Under the pieces are notes generated by a model, which worked only from the letters and a program-made list of their open reading frames with translations, made no database searches and was not told the DNA's origin. From positions 1-9,408 of the IMG/VR virus record IMGVR_UViG_2541047897_000001: DNA of 9,408 nucleotides; one strand, 5' to 3'. This DNA is from a virus (taxonomy: Duplodnaviria > Heunggongvirae > Uroviricota > Caudoviricetes). Shown here in pieces: positions 1,546 to 7,209 of this stretch (positions are counted from its first letter, which is position 1; the number at the start of each line of letters is the position of its first letter). A program made the position numbers and the translations under genes.

Positions 1546-2628
1546 ATGAAAAAACACGCGATTGGCATTGCCGCACTGAATGCGCTGTCCATTGACGATG
1601 ACGGCTGGTGCCAGCTATTGCCTGCCGGTCATTTCAGTGCCCGTGATGGTCGTCCGTTTGATGTGACAGGCGGTCAGGGGTGGTTCATCGACGGTGAGAT
1701 TGCCGGGCGTCTGGTTGAAGGCGTTCGCGCGCTCAACCAGGACGTGCTGATTGATTACGAGCATAACCAGCTACGTAAGGACAAAGGATTACCCCCGGAA
1801 CAACTCGTCGCGGCTGGCTGGTTTAACGCCGATGAAATGCAGTGGCGTGAAGGTGAAGGATTATTTATCCACCCACGCTGGACGGCGGCGGCACAGCAGC
1901 GCATCGATGACGGCGAATTTGGTTATCTCTCTGCGGTTTTTCCGTATGACACCGCCACCGGTGCGGTGCTGCAAATCCGCCTTGCTGCGCTGACCAATGA
2001 CCCCGGTGCCACCGGCATGAAAAAGCTGACCGCACTGGCGGCAGACCTTCCCGACATCCTTCAACAGGAGAACAAACCCATGAATGAAACGCTGCGCAAG
2101 CTGCTTGCGCGTCTTGGGGTGACTGTCCCCGAAAATGCAGACATCACCGATGAACAGGCAACAGCGGCACTGACCGCGCTGGACACGCTGGAAATTAATG
2201 CCGGGAAAGTGGCGGCGTTGTCTGCCGAACTGGAAAAGGCACAGAAAGCCGCCGTTGACCTGACGAAATACGTCCCGGTGGAAAGCTACAACGCCCTGCG
2301 TGATGAACTGGCCCAGGCGACTGCACAAAGCGCCACAGCCAGCCTGAGCGCCGTTCTGGACAAGGCGGAACAGGAAGGCCGCATTTTCAAAAGCGAACGT
2401 ACCTACCTGGAACAGCTTGGCGGTCAGATTGGCGTGGCGGCACTGTCGGCACAGCTTGAGAAAAAACAGCCCATCGCTGCGTTATCTGCCATGCAGACCA
2501 CCACAGCGAAAATCCCGTCGCAGGAAAAACCGGCGGTGGCGGTGCTGTCTGCGGAAGATCTCGCCGCAGCCCGTCTGCTGGGTAAAACCGAAGCAGAATT
2601 TCTGAAACTGAAAGAGGATTCAAAATAA
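1546..2628 (+). CDS. I: Prohead protease / scaffold protein, Mu I-like
   Basis: 360 aa ORF with ATG at 1546 and AGGA 4-5 nt upstream. The N-terminal half has globular composition and the C-terminal half is Ala/Leu/Glu/Lys/Gln-rich and helical, as expected for a protease-scaffold fusion. Stop TAA at 2626-2628 overlaps the T start (TAATG). Size and position match Mu I. Confidence 0.85.
   Translation: MKKHAIGIAALNALSIDDDGWCQLLPAGHFSARDGRPFDVTGGQGWFIDGEIAGRLVEGVRALNQDVLIDYEHNQLRKDKGLPPEQLVAAGWFNADEMQWREGEGLFIHPRWTAAAQQRIDDGEFGYLSAVFPYDTATGAVLQIRLAALTNDPGATGMKKLTALAADLPDILQQENKPMNETLRKLLARLGVTVPENADITDEQATAALTALDTLEINAGKVAALSAELEKAQKAAVDLTKYVPVESYNALRDELAQATAQSATASLSAVLDKAEQEGRIFKSERTYLEQLGGQIGVAALSAQLEKKQPIAALSAMQTTTAKIPSQEKPAVAVLSAEDLAAARLLGKTEAEFLKLKEDSK
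2080..2628 (+). CDS. Z: Nested in-frame scaffold protein (Mu Z-like), translated from an internal start within I
   Basis: In-frame ATG at 2080 (codon 179 of I) with a strong SD, AGGAG at 2066-2070, 9 nt upstream. The product would be the helical C-terminal 182 aa. Mu is known to make scaffold Z from an internal start in I; the exact start here is inferred. Confidence 0.4.
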   Translation: MNETLRKLLARLGVTVPENADITDEQATAALTALDTLEINAGKVAALSAELEKAQKAAVDLTKYVPVESYNALRDELAQATAQSATASLSAVLDKAEQEGRIFKSERTYLEQLGGQIGVAALSAQLEKKQPIAALSAMQTTTAKIPSQEKPAVAVLSAEDLAAARLLGKTEAEFLKLKEDSK

Positions 2629-3566
2629 TGCCAACTCCGATTACTCCGGCGATGATCACCTCGCTGATGACCGGCTACCGTGGCGATTTTCAGGCCGGTA
2701 TGGCAATGGCCCCGTCGCAGTACCAGCAAATTGCAATGACCGTGCCGTCCACGTCGAAATCCAACACGTACGGCTGGCTGGGCCAGTTTCCGCAATTCCG
2801 TGAGTGGATTGGTTCGCGTGTCATCGAGAAGATGAAAGCCTATGGCTATTCCATTGTGAACAAAACCTTTGAAGGCACGGTAGCCATTAACCGTGATGAC
2901 TTCGAAGACGACAATCTCGGTATTTATTCTCCGCTGTTCCAGGAAATGGGCCGTGCCGCAGCGGCACAGCCGGACGAACTGGTGTTCGCAGCCCTGCGTG
3001 ACGGTGTGAAAGTCGCCTGTTATGACGGACAGAACTTCTTCGATACCGAACATCCTGTTTATCCGAAAGTGGATGGCACCGGAGATGTGCAGAACGTCAG
3101 TAATAAATTTGTGGCACAGACTGCCGAAAAAAGCGATTACACCGGTCCGGCCTGGTATCTGCTTGACTGTTCCCGCGCTGTGAAACCGCTGATTTATCAG
3201 GATCGCCGCAAGGCAGAACTGGTCGCCCAGACAAAAGTCGATGAAGGCCGGGCGTTTACGGATAACGAGTTTGTGTTTGGTGCATCAGCCCGTCGCAATG
3301 TGGGGTACGGCTTCTGGCAGATGGCTTACATGATGCAGGCACCGCTGACGCTGGATAATCTCTGGCTCGGCTGGTCGGCCATGCGTGAATTTACGGCTGA
3401 TGGCGGGCGCAAGCTGGGGATTAAGCCCACGCACATTGTGGTGCCCACCTCTCTGGAAAAACAGGCGGTGCAGTTACTGGAACGCGAACTGTTCGCGGAT
3501 GGCAATACCACCGTCTCCAACGAGATGAAGGGCAAGCTGCAACTGGTTGTCGCTGACTACCTGTAA
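2628..3566 (+). CDS. T: Major capsid (head) protein, Mu T-like
   Basis: 312 aa ORF translationally coupled to I (TAATG). The sequence (MPTPITPAMITSLMTGYRGDFQAGMAMAPSQYQQIA...) matches my memory of the Mu T major head subunit family. It is followed by a strong hairpin terminator, as is common after abundant capsid genes. Confidence 0.9.
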   Translation: MPTPITPAMITSLMTGYRGDFQAGMAMAPSQYQQIAMTVPSTSKSNTYGWLGQFPQFREWIGSRVIEKMKAYGYSIVNKTFEGTVAINRDDFEDDNLGIYSPLFQEMGRAAAAQPDELVFAALRDGVKVACYDGQNFFDTEHPVYPKVDGTGDVQNVSNKFVAQTAEKSDYTGPAWYLLDCSRAVKPLIYQDRRKAELVAQTKVDEGRAFTDNEFVFGASARRNVGYGFWQMAYMMQAPLTLDNLWLGWSAMREFTADGGRKLGIKPTHIVVPTSLEKQAVQLLERELFADGNTTVSNEMKGKLQLVVADYL

Positions 3567-3632: not shown

Positions 3633-4043
3633 ATGTCAGGCACTTCGCTTAATTCACAACGGCTGGACACTTCTCGCATCACTTGCACGGCGATTATTAA
3701 ATGCCTTCGTCCGGTCTACCGCCGCGCCGGAATCGCCTTTACACGTGGCGAAAACACCGTGGAAGTCACCGAAGAACAACTGGCGATCATTCGTGCCGAC
3801 AGCGTGCTGTCTGTGGTATCTGCATCGTCAGCAGAAACGCTCGCTGAGGCTGGGGGGCTGGACGTTCTGGGTGTGGGCGATCTGAATACCCGTATCCGTG
3901 CGACCGTTGCCGGTCTGGATAAGGCAAACCCGGAACACTTTACCGCAGGGGGAGAACCCAAAGTGAAAGCCGTCAGTGCGGCGCTGGGAGAAAACGTCAC
4001 TGCGGCACAAATCAAAGCCGCGCTGGCTGAGGCACAAGCATGA
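3633..4043 (+). CDS. Small head-completion protein, Mu gp35-like (hypothetical)
   Basis: 136 aa ORF with ATG at 3633 and a strong SD (ggagg at 3620-3624) 8 nt upstream. The position immediately after the capsid gene matches the Mu/FluMu gp35 slot. Stop TGA overlaps the next start (ATGA at 4040-4043). Confidence 0.65.
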   Translation: MSGTSLNSQRLDTSRITCTAIIKCLRPVYRRAGIAFTRGENTVEVTEEQLAIIRADSVLSVVSASSAETLAEAGGLDVLGVGDLNTRIRATVAGLDKANPEHFTAGGEPKVKAVSAALGENVTAAQIKAALAEAQA

Positions 4044-4462
4044 GCTATGCCACTCTTGACGACATGGTAAAGCGTTACCGGCGCAGCAGCCTGGACGCGC
4101 TGACATCGGATAAAACCGATTCGGGCGAACCGGATGACAGCCTGGTTGAACAGGCGTTACAGGATGCCCGTGCACTTATCGACAGCTATATCAGCCCGCG
4201 TTATCCGTTGCCGTTATCTGTTGTGCCAGCCGCCCTGACCCGCGTCTGCTGTGATATTGCCTTCTATTACCTGTGTGATGCGCAGGCAACCGAGCAGTGC
4301 ACGCAGCGTTATAAAGATGCCGTTAAGTGGCTGCATGACGTACTTAACGAAAAATTGCCGCTGGGAACGGACGCGCATGGCGCTGAACCGGTGAGCGAAA
4401 ATCTGGTGGAAGTGAAATCTGATACCGCTGTTTTTTCCCGTAACCAGAGAGGATTCATCTGA
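4040..4462 (+). CDS. Head-tail connector / neck protein, Mu gp36-like (DUF1320-type)
   Basis: 140 aa ORF with ATG at 4040 overlapping the upstream stop, and gagg 7-8 nt upstream. Position and size match Mu gp36 (often called J). Stop TGA at 4460-4462 overlaps the next start. Confidence 0.7.
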   Translation: MSYATLDDMVKRYRRSSLDALTSDKTDSGEPDDSLVEQALQDARALIDSYISPRYPLPLSVVPAALTRVCCDIAFYYLCDAQATEQCTQRYKDAVKWLHDVLNEKLPLGTDAHGAEPVSENLVEVKSDTAVFSRNQRGFI

Positions 4463-4995
4463 TGATTGCCACGACAGAAGCTGCGTTGCTTGAAACCGTT
4501 CGCGGGCTGTTCGGGCGAACGTTACGCGAAATCAAAACGCATCCGGGCACCTGGTCTGATGCCGCAATAAAAAAAATCCTGATTGCACCACCGTCTGTTT
4601 ATCTGGCGTGGCTGGGCTGCGGTGAAGGCCGCACCCGCCGTGAGGTGGAAAGCCGCTGGGTGTTTTATGTGGTGGCAAAAATGCTGAATGGTCGGGAGAC
4701 CGACCGTCCGGGGATTTACCAGATTGTTGAGCGTCTGATTGCCGGGATGAATGGACAGACGTTTGGCCCGACTACCGGCCTGCGCCTGACCAGCGTCCAG
4801 AACCTGTATACCAGTGCTCAGGGTAATTCAGGTGTCGCACTGTACGGCATCTATTTCAGTGGCATCACGCCGTTGCCGTCAGGTGTGGACATGGATTCGC
4901 TGGATGATTACGAGCGTCACTGGCAGACCTGGAAATTCCCGGACGAAACCCCGGAATTTGCCGCACATATCAATGTTAATGGAGGAACTGATTAG
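4462..4995 (+). CDS. Head-tail joining / tail completion protein, Mu gp37-like
   Basis: 177 aa ORF with ATG at 4462 (TGATG overlap with the upstream stop) and SD agagagga 8 nt upstream. Position and size match Mu gp37 (often called K). Stop TAG at 4993-4995. Confidence 0.7.
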   Translation: MIATTEAALLETVRGLFGRTLREIKTHPGTWSDAAIKKILIAPPSVYLAWLGCGEGRTRREVESRWVFYVVAKMLNGRETDRPGIYQIVERLIAGMNGQTFGPTTGLRLTSVQNLYTSAQGNSGVALYGIYFSGITPLPSGVDMDSLDDYERHWQTWKFPDETPEFAAHINVNGGTD

Positions 4996-5006
4996 TTGGG
5001 GTAAGA

Positions 5007-5034
5007 AAGCCACACAATGCTGGTTGTGTGGCTT
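5007..5034. terminator. Bidirectional hairpin terminator between the convergent gp37-like gene and the minus-strand accessory gene
   Basis: Perfect inverted repeat agccacacaa (5008-5017) / ttgtgtggct (5024-5033) with loop tgctgg, extendable to 11 bp with the a5007:t5034 pair. It lies between two convergent stop codons (TAG at 4993-4995 on +, TAA at 5053-5055 on -). The flanking runs are only moderately U-rich on either strand. Confidence 0.45.
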
Positions 5035-5052
5035 GATTCTGCGGTTTAGTGC

Positions 5053-5385
5053 TTAGGTTCGTTTTTCAGAGATGATAATTCGCTCTCCGTCAATGATGCG
5101 TTGTTTTAACCCACTGATGGTGGCCTGGAAATCTGAACCATCGGGTGCGAATGAAAGCTCGATGGTTCCGCCTGAGTTAAAAACGACGGAATGAAAGATT
5201 TTTCCGTCTTTTCTTTCAATTTCATAGGAACAGATATCCGCAAGGTGTTCTATTCCGAAAGAGAGGATCTTATCCATGTGTGCTGAAACAGATTTTGCAC
5301 GTACAACAGGGGAACCATCCTCCCCGATTTTGATCTCCAGAGGTCCATTGCCGGGAGTCATGGTTACTGGTTTAGGTTCGGTCAT
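5053..5385 (-). CDS. Hypothetical protein, 110 aa; moron-like accessory gene of unknown function, opposite in orientation to the structural operon
   Basis: The only minus-strand ORF that does not lie antisense inside a + strand gene. ATG is the complement of 5383-5385 and the minus-strand reading is AGAGGAG-TATCAAAA-ATG, giving a strong SD about 8 nt upstream. Stop TAA is the complement of 5053-5055. Local GC is about 40-48% by hand count on three 60-nt stretches, clearly AT-richer than the flanking phage genes (not measured). The protein (MTEPKPVTMTPGNGPLEIKIGEDGSPVVRAKSVSAHMDKILSFGIEHLADICSYEIERKDGKIFHSVVFNSGGTIELSFAPDGSDFQATISGLKQRIIDGERIIISEKRT) is hydrophilic, slightly acidic, with no signal peptide or TM segment, and its alternating pattern suggests beta strands. 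I recognise no catalytic motif or family. Confidence 0.6.
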   Translation of the reverse strand: MTEPKPVTMTPGNGPLEIKIGEDGSPVVRAKSVSAHMDKILSFGIEHLADICSYEIERKDGKIFHSVVFNSGGTIELSFAPDGSDFQATISGLKQRIIDGERIIISEKRT

Positions 5386-5419
5386 TTTTGATACTCCTCT
5401 TTTAGAAATAACCGCATCT

Positions 5420-5448
5420 TTTATACAGACAAAAACAATGCGTGAAAA
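5420..5448 (-). promoter_or_regulatory. Candidate sigma70 promoter for the minus-strand accessory gene
   Basis: On the minus strand: TTTTCA (complement of 5443-5448), 17 nt spacer, TATAAA (complement of 5420-5425). This sits about 35 nt upstream of the ATG, in the AT-rich gap. It is a by-eye hexamer match only. Confidence 0.3.
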
Positions 5449-5500
5449 CAGTGCCGGAACATCCTGTCAGTAACCGGGACATATCAGAAAGTAATCTTTA

Positions 5501-5725
5501 GTGAAAATGGCTATGAATGACGTTCTGAAAATTAAACCCGCAGCGGGAAAAGCCATCCGTGACCCGCTCACGATGAAATTACTGGCGTCTGAGGGGGAAG
5601 AAAAGCCCCGTAACAGTTTCTGGATACGTCGCCTTGCAGCCGGTGATGTGGTTGAAGTCGGGAGCACCGAAAACACGGCGGATGATACCGACGCTGCGCC
5701 GAAAAAACGGAGTAAATCGAAATGA
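5501..5725 (+). CDS. Small conserved protein, Mu gp38-like (DUF2635-type)
   Basis: 74-codon ORF from GTG 5501; alternative starts are ATG 5507 or ATG 5513. No convincing SD precedes any of them. Stop TGA at 5723-5725 overlaps the sheath gene start (ATGA). The position immediately upstream of the tail sheath matches Mu gp38. Start codon is uncertain. Confidence 0.55.
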
Positions 5726-7209
5726 GCGATATTTCATTTAACGCGATCCCGTCAGATGTTCGCGTTCCTCTGACGTATATCGAATTTGATAACAGTAATG
5801 CCGTCAGCGGAACACCGGCCCCCCGTCAGCGCGTGCTGATGTTCGGACAAAGCGGAAGTAAAGCCAGTGCGGCACCAGACGTGCCTGTCCGTATCCGTTC
5901 CGGCTCACAGGCCAGAGCGGCGTTTGGTCAGGGTTCCATGCTGGCACTGATGGCAGATGCATTCCTGAACGCTAACCGCGTGGCGGAGCTGTGGTGTATT
6001 CCGCAGGGGAACGGCACCGGTAATGCTGCTGTCGGTGAAATTTCACTGTCAGGAACGGCAGGCGAAAACGGCTCGCTTGTGACTTACATTGCCGGTCAGC
6101 GACTGGCGATATCTGTCGCAGCAGGTGCTACAGGGGCGGCGCTGGCTGACCTGCTGGTTGCCCGAATCAAAGGCCAGCCTGATTTACCGGTGACGGCAGA
6201 AGTTCGCGCAGACAGCGGGGATGATGACACCCATGCAGATGTGGTTCTGAGTGCAAAATTTACGGGTGCATTATCTGCCGTGGATGTGCGCTGGAACTAT
6301 TACGCGGGTGAAACCACCCCTTACGGGATTATCACGGCATTCAAAGCCGCCTCCGGGAAAAATGGCAACCCGGATATCAGCGCAAGTATCGCGGGAATGG
6401 GAGATCTGCAATACAAATATATTGTGATGCCCTATACCGATGAACCGAACCTGAATCTGTTACGCACTGAATTGCAGGAACGCTGGGGACCGGTCAATCA
6501 GGCTGATGGCTTTGCCGTGACAGTGCTGTCCGGCACGTATGGGGATATTTCCACGTTTGGTGTCAGTCGTAATGACCATCTGATCTCCTGTATGGGGATT
6601 GCCGGTGCACCGGAACCGTCATATCTGTACGCCGCCACACTGTGTGCCGTTGCCAGCCAGGCGCTTTCCATCGACCCGGCGCGTCCTCTCCAGACGCTGA
6701 CGTTGCCCGGAAGAATGCCGCCTGCGGTGGGGGATCGTTTCACCTGGTCAGAACGTAATGCGCTGCTGTTTGACGGCATCTCCACGTTTAACGTGAATGA
6801 TGGTGGTGAAATGCAGATTGAACGCATGATCACGATGTACCGCACAAACAAGTACGGTGACAGTGATCCGTCTTATCTGAACGTGAATACCATCGCCACG
6901 CTGAGTTATCTGCGTTATTCACTGCGAACCCGCATCACGCAGAAATTCCCGAACTACAAGCTGGCAAGTGATGGCACCCGCTTTGCCACCGGTCAGGCCG
7001 TGGTGACGCCATCCGTGATCAAAACGGAGCTGCTGGCACTGTTTGAAGAATGGGAAAACGCCGGACTGGTCGAGGATTTCGACACGTTCAAAGAGGAGCT
7101 GTATGTGGCACGTAACAAGGACGACAAAGACCGCCTTGATGTGCTGTGCGGCCCGAATCTGATTAACCAGTTCCGCATTTTCGCGGCACAAGTTCAGTTC
7201 ATTCTGTAA
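5722..7209 (+). CDS. L: Tail sheath protein, Mu L-like
   Basis: 495 aa ORF with ATG at 5722 and ggag 9 nt upstream. Size and position (before a 118 aa tube gene) are typical of a contractile tail sheath and match Mu L. Confidence 0.9.

Follow-up and report, generated by a model that had tools for sequence, protein, structure and literature searches.

Comparison with related loci shows the minus-strand gene of this Mu-like prophage to be the centre of a putative autonomous moron cassette, in which a promoter/leader block, a 110-aa open reading frame (ORF) and a terminator lie antisense between gp37 and gp38. The comparison also shows a gene that is, judging by its distribution and divergence, accessory and under purifying selection. 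Modelling and database searches show its product as a predicted cytoplasmic (by eye), mildly acidic, all-beta protein whose family is absent from every library searched. What is new here is that the gene has a family, that the cassette moves between unrelated phages, and that a sister subfamily ends type VI secretion system (T6SS) toxin islands.

Gene order in the late region

The analysed stretch of DNA (hereafter the window; 9,408 nucleotides) comes from an SfMu-like Muvirus prophage of E. coli and covers the late region of this Mu-like phage. The following genes and elements were placed on it, the inserted segment by base-by-base comparison with SfMu (L001) and the conserved upstream block by alignment A6:

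10–882, + strand, MuF C-terminal part (window annotation)
879–1349, + strand, gpG-like
1546–2628, + strand, protease/scaffold
2628–3566, + strand, major head
3633–4043, + strand, FluMu_N protein
4040–4462, + strand, Gp36 adaptor
4462–4995, + strand, gp37-like (Phage_Mu_Gp37), last codons altered by the insertion
4977–5524, inserted segment, 548 bp, 42.9% GC
5000–5034, − strand, intrinsic-terminator-like hairpin (stems 5007–5017 and 5024–5034) with a T-rich tail on the ORF strand
5053–5385, − strand, 110-aa ORF (stop codon included), ATG start, uncharacterised small all-beta family
5386–5437, − strand, conserved 52-nt upstream block with −10 element, AU-rich unstructured leader and Shine-Dalgarno (SD) sequence
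5394–5399, − strand, SD sequence GAGGAG, 8 nt before the ATG
5420–5425, − strand, −10 hexamer TATAAA (TATAAT in distant relatives)
5443–5448, − strand, weak −35-like hexamer TTTTCA, 17 nt upstream of the −10
about 5513–5725, + strand, gp38-like (DUF2635), coupling to gp37 lost, new N-terminus
5722–7209, + strand, sheath
7219–7575, + strand, tube
7585–8019, + strand, gp41

The structural genes (F, G, I, T, gp35–38, sheath, tube and gp41 in the window annotation) all lie on the + strand, as the initial annotation had stated, and the minus-strand ORF fills the sole gene-sized gap among them. Its lower GC content relative to the neighbouring genes was likewise confirmed. The GC profile of the window drops to 0.42–0.45 at the ORF region from ~0.55 elsewhere, and the rest of the window has 55.1% GC against the 42.9% of the inserted segment.

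Two other intervals of the window deserve mention. A 196-bp gap with a GC dip to 0.48 separates the gpG-like and protease/scaffold genes (1350–1545), and no + strand ORF of at least 50 aa is listed there; the late promoter P_I of Mu and the anti-CRISPR genes of Pseudomonas Mu-like phages are located at this position. Between gp41 and the tape-measure gene lie ~144 nt (8020–8163); many tailed phages encode a frameshifted extension of the tail-assembly chaperone at this point.

Insertion at the gp37/gp38 junction

The window is identical to Shigella phage SfMu up to position 4976, and the match resumes at 5525 with two mismatches. The 548-bp segment in between takes the place of 23 bp in SfMu, at the junction where its gp37 and gp38 overlap. 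By megablast the flanks are 99.4% identical to SfMu, with a spacing that is 525 bp longer in the window. The two genes overlap in SfMu, and alignments with Mu and D108 close across the junction likewise, which agrees with the statement in the initial annotation that gp37 and gp38 are adjacent in canonical Mu. At the protein level, gp37 ends in ..NVNGGTD* in the window vs ..NVNQEEDHDAEN in SfMu, and the ..NVNGGTD ending also occurs in other cassette-bearing lineages. The N-terminus of gp38 reads MNDVLKIKP in the window vs MLKIKP, and its translational coupling to gp37 was lost through the insertion.

The junction is empty in Mu, D108, SfMu and Yersinia Mu-like phages, in all 44 complete E. coli genomes that carry the region (of 5,426), and in 32 of 32 IMG/VR Mu-like loci with gp37 identities of 62–98%. 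The insert sequence itself had no match among the 5,426 complete E. coli genomes. Measured by blast coordinates, the junction gap is 8–38 nt in empty loci vs 529–546 nt in those with the cassette. In the synteny comparison across Mu-like prophages, the junction was empty in all others surveyed save the cassette lineages. Different cargo, about which the initial annotation had asked, was not found there among the 32 IMG/VR loci. Because the junction in these loci is either empty or holds this cassette, a general cargo hotspot was rejected. Target-site duplications or terminal inverted repeats were also discarded, since the insert ends share only 8-nt and 80%-identical 15-nt matches, both at chance level.

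Relatives with 62–77% identity lie antisense at the same junction in four other Mu-like lineages, whose gp37 proteins are 68–73% identical. The gene is therefore present in five Mu-like lineages including the window, antisense in all, and absent from the other surveyed Muvirus-like loci. Because ORF and gp37 show similar identities, the cassette must be old in part of the Mu-like clade. It may either have been recombined into an SfMu-like backbone or have been lost from the Mu/SfMu branch. On one cassette-bearing Mu-like contig (L009, 3–1210), DUF2635 is followed by a 157-aa gene (without a recorded Pfam match) and a 246-aa gene, which stand in place of the 495–505-aa sheath gene, suggesting that another type of tail module follows the junction here.

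Putative promoter, leader and terminator of the cassette

The ORF is preceded by a conserved block of 52 nt, beyond which similarity ends upstream. Its consensus is TTTAYCTGTATAAAnnnTGCGGTTAYTTCAAMAnnAGGAGCATYAAnAATG, and its identity to the window ranges from 0.67 to 0.90, vs 0.29–0.73 at third codon positions in the same loci. In our reading, it consists of a −10 element and, after it, an unstructured, AU-rich leader that is efficiently translated. The −10 is kept in every relative and is a perfect TATAAT in two distant ones; at about 27% protein identity the homologous block still has the form GTATAAT-N4-GCGTTTAWTTCAACAWAAGGAGC. The core AGGAG of the SD sequence is kept in nine of ten aligned relatives, with AGGCG in L060, and in the window GAGGAG (5399–5394) stands 8 nt from the ATG, in accordance with the SD sequence proposed initially. 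The promoter proposed at the same time was only partly borne out. TTTTCA-N17-TATAAA is present at 5448–5420 and its −10 is conserved, whereas a strict sigma-70 consensus scan found no promoter; conservation of the TTTTCA −35-like element is confined to the Mu-like lineages.

A search of IMG/VR found the block nowhere but ahead of this gene, which excludes a generic promoter common to other genes. A LexA box was rejected by eye, as only the CTGTAT half-site is present and the second half is GCG, not CAG. A stable RNA structure or riboswitch was dismissed as well (consensus fold −1.4 kcal/mol, no Rfam match). No regulator site was recognised and no RNA structure predicted in the leader; the block could still serve as an operator. 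Conservation of the leader (GCGGTTAYTTCAA..AGGAGC) exceeds that of the protein behind it, and homologous blocks are found at L002, L003, L006, L007, L009, L057, L058, L060, L061, L089 and L091.

Beyond the 3′ end of the ORF, 19 nt past the stop codon, lies the hairpin that had been described there, a perfect 11-bp stem with a 6-nt loop (5007–5034). A 10-bp hairpin is conserved across nine loci, with a consensus fold of −14.1 kcal/mol and compensatory double changes in four of its ten pairs; more distant members have different GC-rich hairpins. On the ORF strand the hairpin is followed by TCTTACC. The T-tract lies on this strand, and the late-operon strand has only TTGATTCTG after the hairpin. 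Given this asymmetry, termination should favour the moron transcript, and late transcription would read through. The interpretation of the gene as an acquired moron at gp37/gp38 is thus upheld by the precise indel, the empty junction elsewhere, the conserved promoter block and terminator, and the atypical composition.

An unannotated protein family under selection

The gene had been called an orphan, which proved wrong: it belongs to a sizeable, unannotated family. A word-indexed search of 5.8 billion proteins returned five clusters only (62–97% identity), each of which sits in a Mu-like prophage, in antisense orientation between gp37 and DUF2635; one host is an Enterobacteriaceae gut isolate. 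The exhaustive profile search of 1.84 billion representatives gave 60 matches at E < 1e-3, about 45 of which are stand-alone proteins of 72–170 aa aligned over their full length. Large profile matches (WD40, PepSY, DUF5122 and a surface-repeat protein) were set aside as repeat proteins with generic beta-hairpin patterns that lack the family motifs. The identical protein appears under the label 'hypothetical protein [Escherichia coli]' on 38 contigs; Yersinia enterocolitica has one that is nearly identical. Family members are found in E. coli, Yersinia, Providencia, Serratia, Iodobacter, Collimonas and many metagenomes, and one subfamily alone comprises 90 clusters at 90% identity. All named members are labelled 'hypothetical protein', except P0035, a 'TnpA family transposase' (JGI).

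Relatives at 35–77% identity keep the reading frame with pairwise dN/dS values of 0.10–0.43; the ORF is therefore a real gene and not a chance frame. The typical member is a stand-alone protein of about 100–120 aa, which settles the concern that the window protein might be a fragment of a larger gene (a pseudogene remnant). P0027 (239 aa) is a tandem duplication of the family domain, and P0058, P0063 and P0065 carry N-terminal extensions of 60–100 aa. At window positions 5245–5247 (codon 47), within the motif G-I-E-N, the window protein has His, a 97%-identical relative Gln and most of the family Asn, indicating that the E. coli lineage changed a conserved motif residue.

Library searches gave no name to the family. 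Pfam, PHROGs and NCBIfam returned nothing significant for the window protein, nor did Pfam for all 48 family members, and the PADLOC-DB v2 defence-system HMMs gave no match at E <= 10. Sequence and profile searches of the PDB yielded sub-threshold beta-hairpin matches only (Tse15, E = 0.12; DMP12, E = 1.5), and tblastn against 50,697 phage records one weak match (PaMx31, E = 0.4). No paper describing this gene was found in literature searches.

Predicted structure of the protein

An AlphaFold2 model based on 48 sequences (pLDDT 92.3, pTM 0.80) contains eleven beta-strands and no helices of four residues or more. It replaced a poor model obtained with six close homologues (pLDDT 57). Together with the absence of any library match, the predicted fold is in keeping with the earlier description of a soluble, beta-rich protein of an undescribed family. 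Foldseek searches of the PDB and BFVD identified no fold analogue below E = 1e-3, and the small beta fold is possibly new. Neither in sequence nor in fold was similarity detected to solved anti-defence proteins (Acr, Ocr, Tad, Acb and others).

The window protein is mildly acidic (pI 5.6, the same as the family median) and has no recognisable catalytic motif. By eye it lacks a signal peptide and membrane segment, and family members are likewise without a signal peptide. In the family alignment, His65 is the sole invariant polar residue, and F69, G72, G73 and G83 are nearly invariant.

The cassette in unrelated temperate phages

The cassette is about 440 bp long, and comparison of its surroundings shows it as a unit that has moved between unrelated temperate phages. 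Non-Mu prophages carry relatives at 35–55% identity, placed either between the genes for lysis and terminase or next to a methyltransferase gene. In two different lambdoid prophages of Providencia rettgeri, the sister-subfamily gene separates the lysis genes from the GpA terminase; in prophages of Serratia fonticola and Yersinia thracica it is inside the lysis cassette, with a presumed endolysin gene (without Pfam match) on one side and the spanin genes on the other. The gene runs counter to its neighbours in each of the 15 distinct phage contexts; at L010 the counter-oriented gene is part of a three-gene islet. The GC content of the gene is below that of its locus in nearly every context.

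Several of these prophages carry further accessory genes. Genes for Acb2/Tad1-hairpin domains (anti-CBASS or anti-Thoeris sponge type) are located at L087 9987–10226 and L091 4707–4988, in the lysis-to-terminase region of Providencia and Yersinia prophages with family members, and are co-oriented with the phage genes. A HicAB toxin-antitoxin pair adjoins the lysis cassette of the Serratia prophage (L089 8165–8798) and a Mom-like gene that of the Yersinia prophage (L091 8148–8876). The lysis-cassette region at both loci is dense in accessory genes.

Sister-subfamily members at the end of T6SS islands

About ten non-phage contexts had usable flanks. Four of them are effector islands of T6SS, each ending in a co-oriented gene of the sister subfamily:

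Collimonas pratensis: VgrG, DUF4123, DUF3304, Tle1-like, then the family member
Iodobacter: VgrG, PLD-domain (PLD/Tle5-like) effector, Sel1/DUF6396, then the family member
Metagenome contig: Tle1-like effector, signal-peptide protein and two small ORFs, with the family member last
IMG/VR contig: VasX_N toxin and a pair of DUF6708 genes, with the family member last

The four island members lie at L092 7001–7351, L085 5001–5366, L082 3445–3783 and L056 6001–6336. DUF3304 is the Tli1 immunity family and DUF4123 an adaptor (PMC13133936). The immunity slot in the islands is filled by other genes (DUF3304, Sel1/DUF6396, DUF6708 and the signal-peptide protein), and the family member is therefore an extra gene rather than the cognate immunity gene. 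No toxin-paired homologue of the family was found in the contexts examined. All four island effectors act on the membrane or periplasm, and the family protein has no visible export signal.

The island members, drawn from a sister subfamily with only about 25–30% identity to the window protein, lack the phage-type upstream block and may differ from the window protein in function. As it comes from the sister subfamily, the T6SS link is suggestive rather than demonstrated. At other chromosomal sites, members occur singly, with low GC content, next to housekeeping genes. No conserved partner gene was found next to family members.

Proposed function and alternative explanations

The cassette combines a host-type −10, an unstructured AU-rich leader and a consensus SD sequence, and faces the C-dependent Mu late operon. 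These signals and the opposing orientation argue for transcription by host RNA polymerase, probably independent of the lytic cascade, which would mean expression in the lysogen, at a high level. Since the family has one invariant polar residue, His65, and neither a catalytic motif nor a partner gene, the protein most likely acts by stoichiometric protein binding. Its occurrence in prophage moron hotspots and at the distal end of T6SS islands makes a component of inter-microbial conflict the most likely target. The carrier cell would then be protected against an incoming toxin or a superinfecting phage. We infer a role in conflict, through exclusion or protection of the immunity type, and with lower likelihood through counter-defence; hotspot position is not evidence of function, and the defence, anti-defence or host-fitness roles put forward in the initial annotation are still hypotheses. 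The full proposal is that the protein is made in the lysogen, where it binds and neutralises a target involved in conflict and so acts like an immunity or exclusion factor; we judge its chances to be even. Counted against it are the negative strict promoter scan and the weak −35 element, the lack of any homology or fold match that points to a mechanism, and the fact that the T6SS members form a distant sister subfamily in islands whose cognate immunity genes are other proteins and whose effectors act on the membrane or periplasm, where a protein with no visible export signal would not be expected. The exclusion genes of phage Fc02 (PMC9936078) were considered as an analogue and rejected, as they are positioned near the repressor region.

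A counter-defence protein, made on DNA entry from the host-type promoter and inhibiting host immunity in the manner of small beta-rich anti-CRISPR or sponge proteins, would have much the same appearance: small, soluble, encoded by a single accessory gene that evolves fast, and equipped with a strong ribosome-binding site. In two prophages, Acb2/Tad1-hairpin genes share the region with a relative, and Mu-like Pseudomonas phages have anti-CRISPR loci in their structural region. We nevertheless regard this role as unlikely. Similarity to solved anti-defence proteins and a linked aca-type regulator gene are both absent, counter-orientation and a private terminator are more typical of lysogen-expressed morons, and the members in chromosomal T6SS islands would be hard to explain.

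The immunity- or exclusion-like role can be taken a step further. The family might constitute a new class of mobile cytoplasmic protective protein, carried as a phage cassette or as a T6SS terminal gene, that shields the cell against membrane-targeting attack, whether from type VI effectors (lipases or pore formers) or from a comparable insult delivered by a phage or bacteriocin. This extension is speculative and, in our estimate, distinctly improbable; if true, it would amount to prophage-borne interbacterial defence by means of a fold without a solved analogue.

Membranes also enter into a different and still more doubtful explanation, in which the protein modulates envelope, membrane or lysis physiology, for example by tuning how holins or spanins act or how the cell responds to damaged phospholipids. 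The position between endolysin and spanin genes in the Serratia and Yersinia prophages, the adjacency to spanin or lysis genes in other prophages, and the membrane-attacking effectors in four of four neighbouring T6SS islands are consistent with such a role. It is contradicted by the absence of a visible membrane segment or signal peptide and by the antisense orientation to the lysis genes, with which the gene is thus not co-regulated. The lysis–terminase boundary is moreover a generic moron hotspot, exemplified by lambda bor, and in Mu-like phages the gene lies far from the lysis genes.

We give very little credence to a selfish or neutral passenger, or to an effect at the DNA or RNA level in which convergent transcription or the terminator insulates or dampens the tail genes and the protein is unimportant. 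A hairpin and a putative convergent promoter are indeed placed in the middle of the late operon (I to tail genes), and the upstream block is more conserved than the protein. Yet the protein is under purifying selection across 35–77% identity and retains an invariant His and near-invariant F and G residues, the family also occurs in chromosomal islands without cassette signals, and the T-tract of the hairpin belongs to the ORF strand and not to that of the late operon. Finally, a virion or assembly accessory of the neck–tail junction, as the position between gp37 and the sheath-proximal genes might suggest, or a remnant of a larger gene is effectively refuted, because the gene runs on the opposite strand, because it is missing from Mu, D108, SfMu and all other surveyed Mu-like loci, so that no conserved virion-structural homologues occupy this position in most Mu-like phages, because it is present at unrelated positions in siphovirus-type lambdoid prophages, and because family members stand alone at about 100–120 aa.

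Significance

A moron in a Mu-like prophage will in itself not surprise the specialist. A confirmed function would annotate a family that is unrecognised in every library searched and add a new example of the gifts of prophages to their hosts. The gene is a good candidate for screening: the compact cassette stays intact across unrelated phages, its leader is more conserved than its protein, and a sister subfamily recurs at the end of T6SS islands. SfMu, with an empty site, and this prophage, with a filled one, offer a natural isogenic comparison. The recurrence in T6SS lipase and pore-former islands links phage morons with interbacterial weapon loci and is the most original lead of this analysis; cassette, possible new fold and T6SS co-occurrence together make a worthwhile experimental target.

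Comparison with known systems

At the sequence level, the family motif GG-x-[VI]-x-[LF]-x-Y-x-x-x-G-x-L resembles the YD/RHS-repeat hairpin, and weak profile matches extend to the Rhs effector Tse15 and to PepSY and WD40 repeat proteins. All of these matches fall short of family thresholds (best PDB E = 0.12; RHS_repeat in one of 48 members, E = 0.037). Unlike YD/RHS and PepSY-like repeat arrays, the window protein stands alone at 110 aa, and it has no fold match.

In Pseudomonas Mu-like phages, an anti-CRISPR/accessory locus lies between the G and protease/scaffold genes. It shares with the present cassette a small accessory gene within the structural region of a transposable phage. Here, in contrast, the site is gp37/gp38 and not G/I, the gene is on the opposite strand and has no aca regulator, and no similarity in sequence or fold was detected.

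Orphan immunity genes occur at the 3′ end of T6SS auxiliary clusters. The sister-subfamily members are comparable in being last and co-oriented after effector and immunity genes in four vgrG or effector islands. They differ in that family members were not found directly paired with a toxin as cognate immunity, and in that the export signal expected for immunity to the periplasm-acting Tle and VasX effectors is absent by eye.

The closest parallels are the phage morons, which were reportedly defined for HK97 and HK022 by Juhala, Hendrix et al. (2000). Examples are lambda bor, which encodes the lipoprotein Bor, and HK97 gp15, a membrane protein for superinfection exclusion. Like the morons of HK97 and HK022, the cassette is a single extra gene of atypical composition, with a candidate promoter and a terminator of its own; it runs against the late genes and occupies a precise junction at which close relatives have no insert. 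The relatives in lambdoid prophages sit exactly at the bor site, just after the lysis genes. The window protein is unrelated to Bor and gp15, being cytoplasmic and all-beta as far as can be predicted, and its expression in the lysogen is putative. The cassette also differs from other morons in that its promoter/leader block is conserved across about 27–77% protein identity; to our knowledge, conservation of such a block over this degree of protein divergence has not been described for any other moron.
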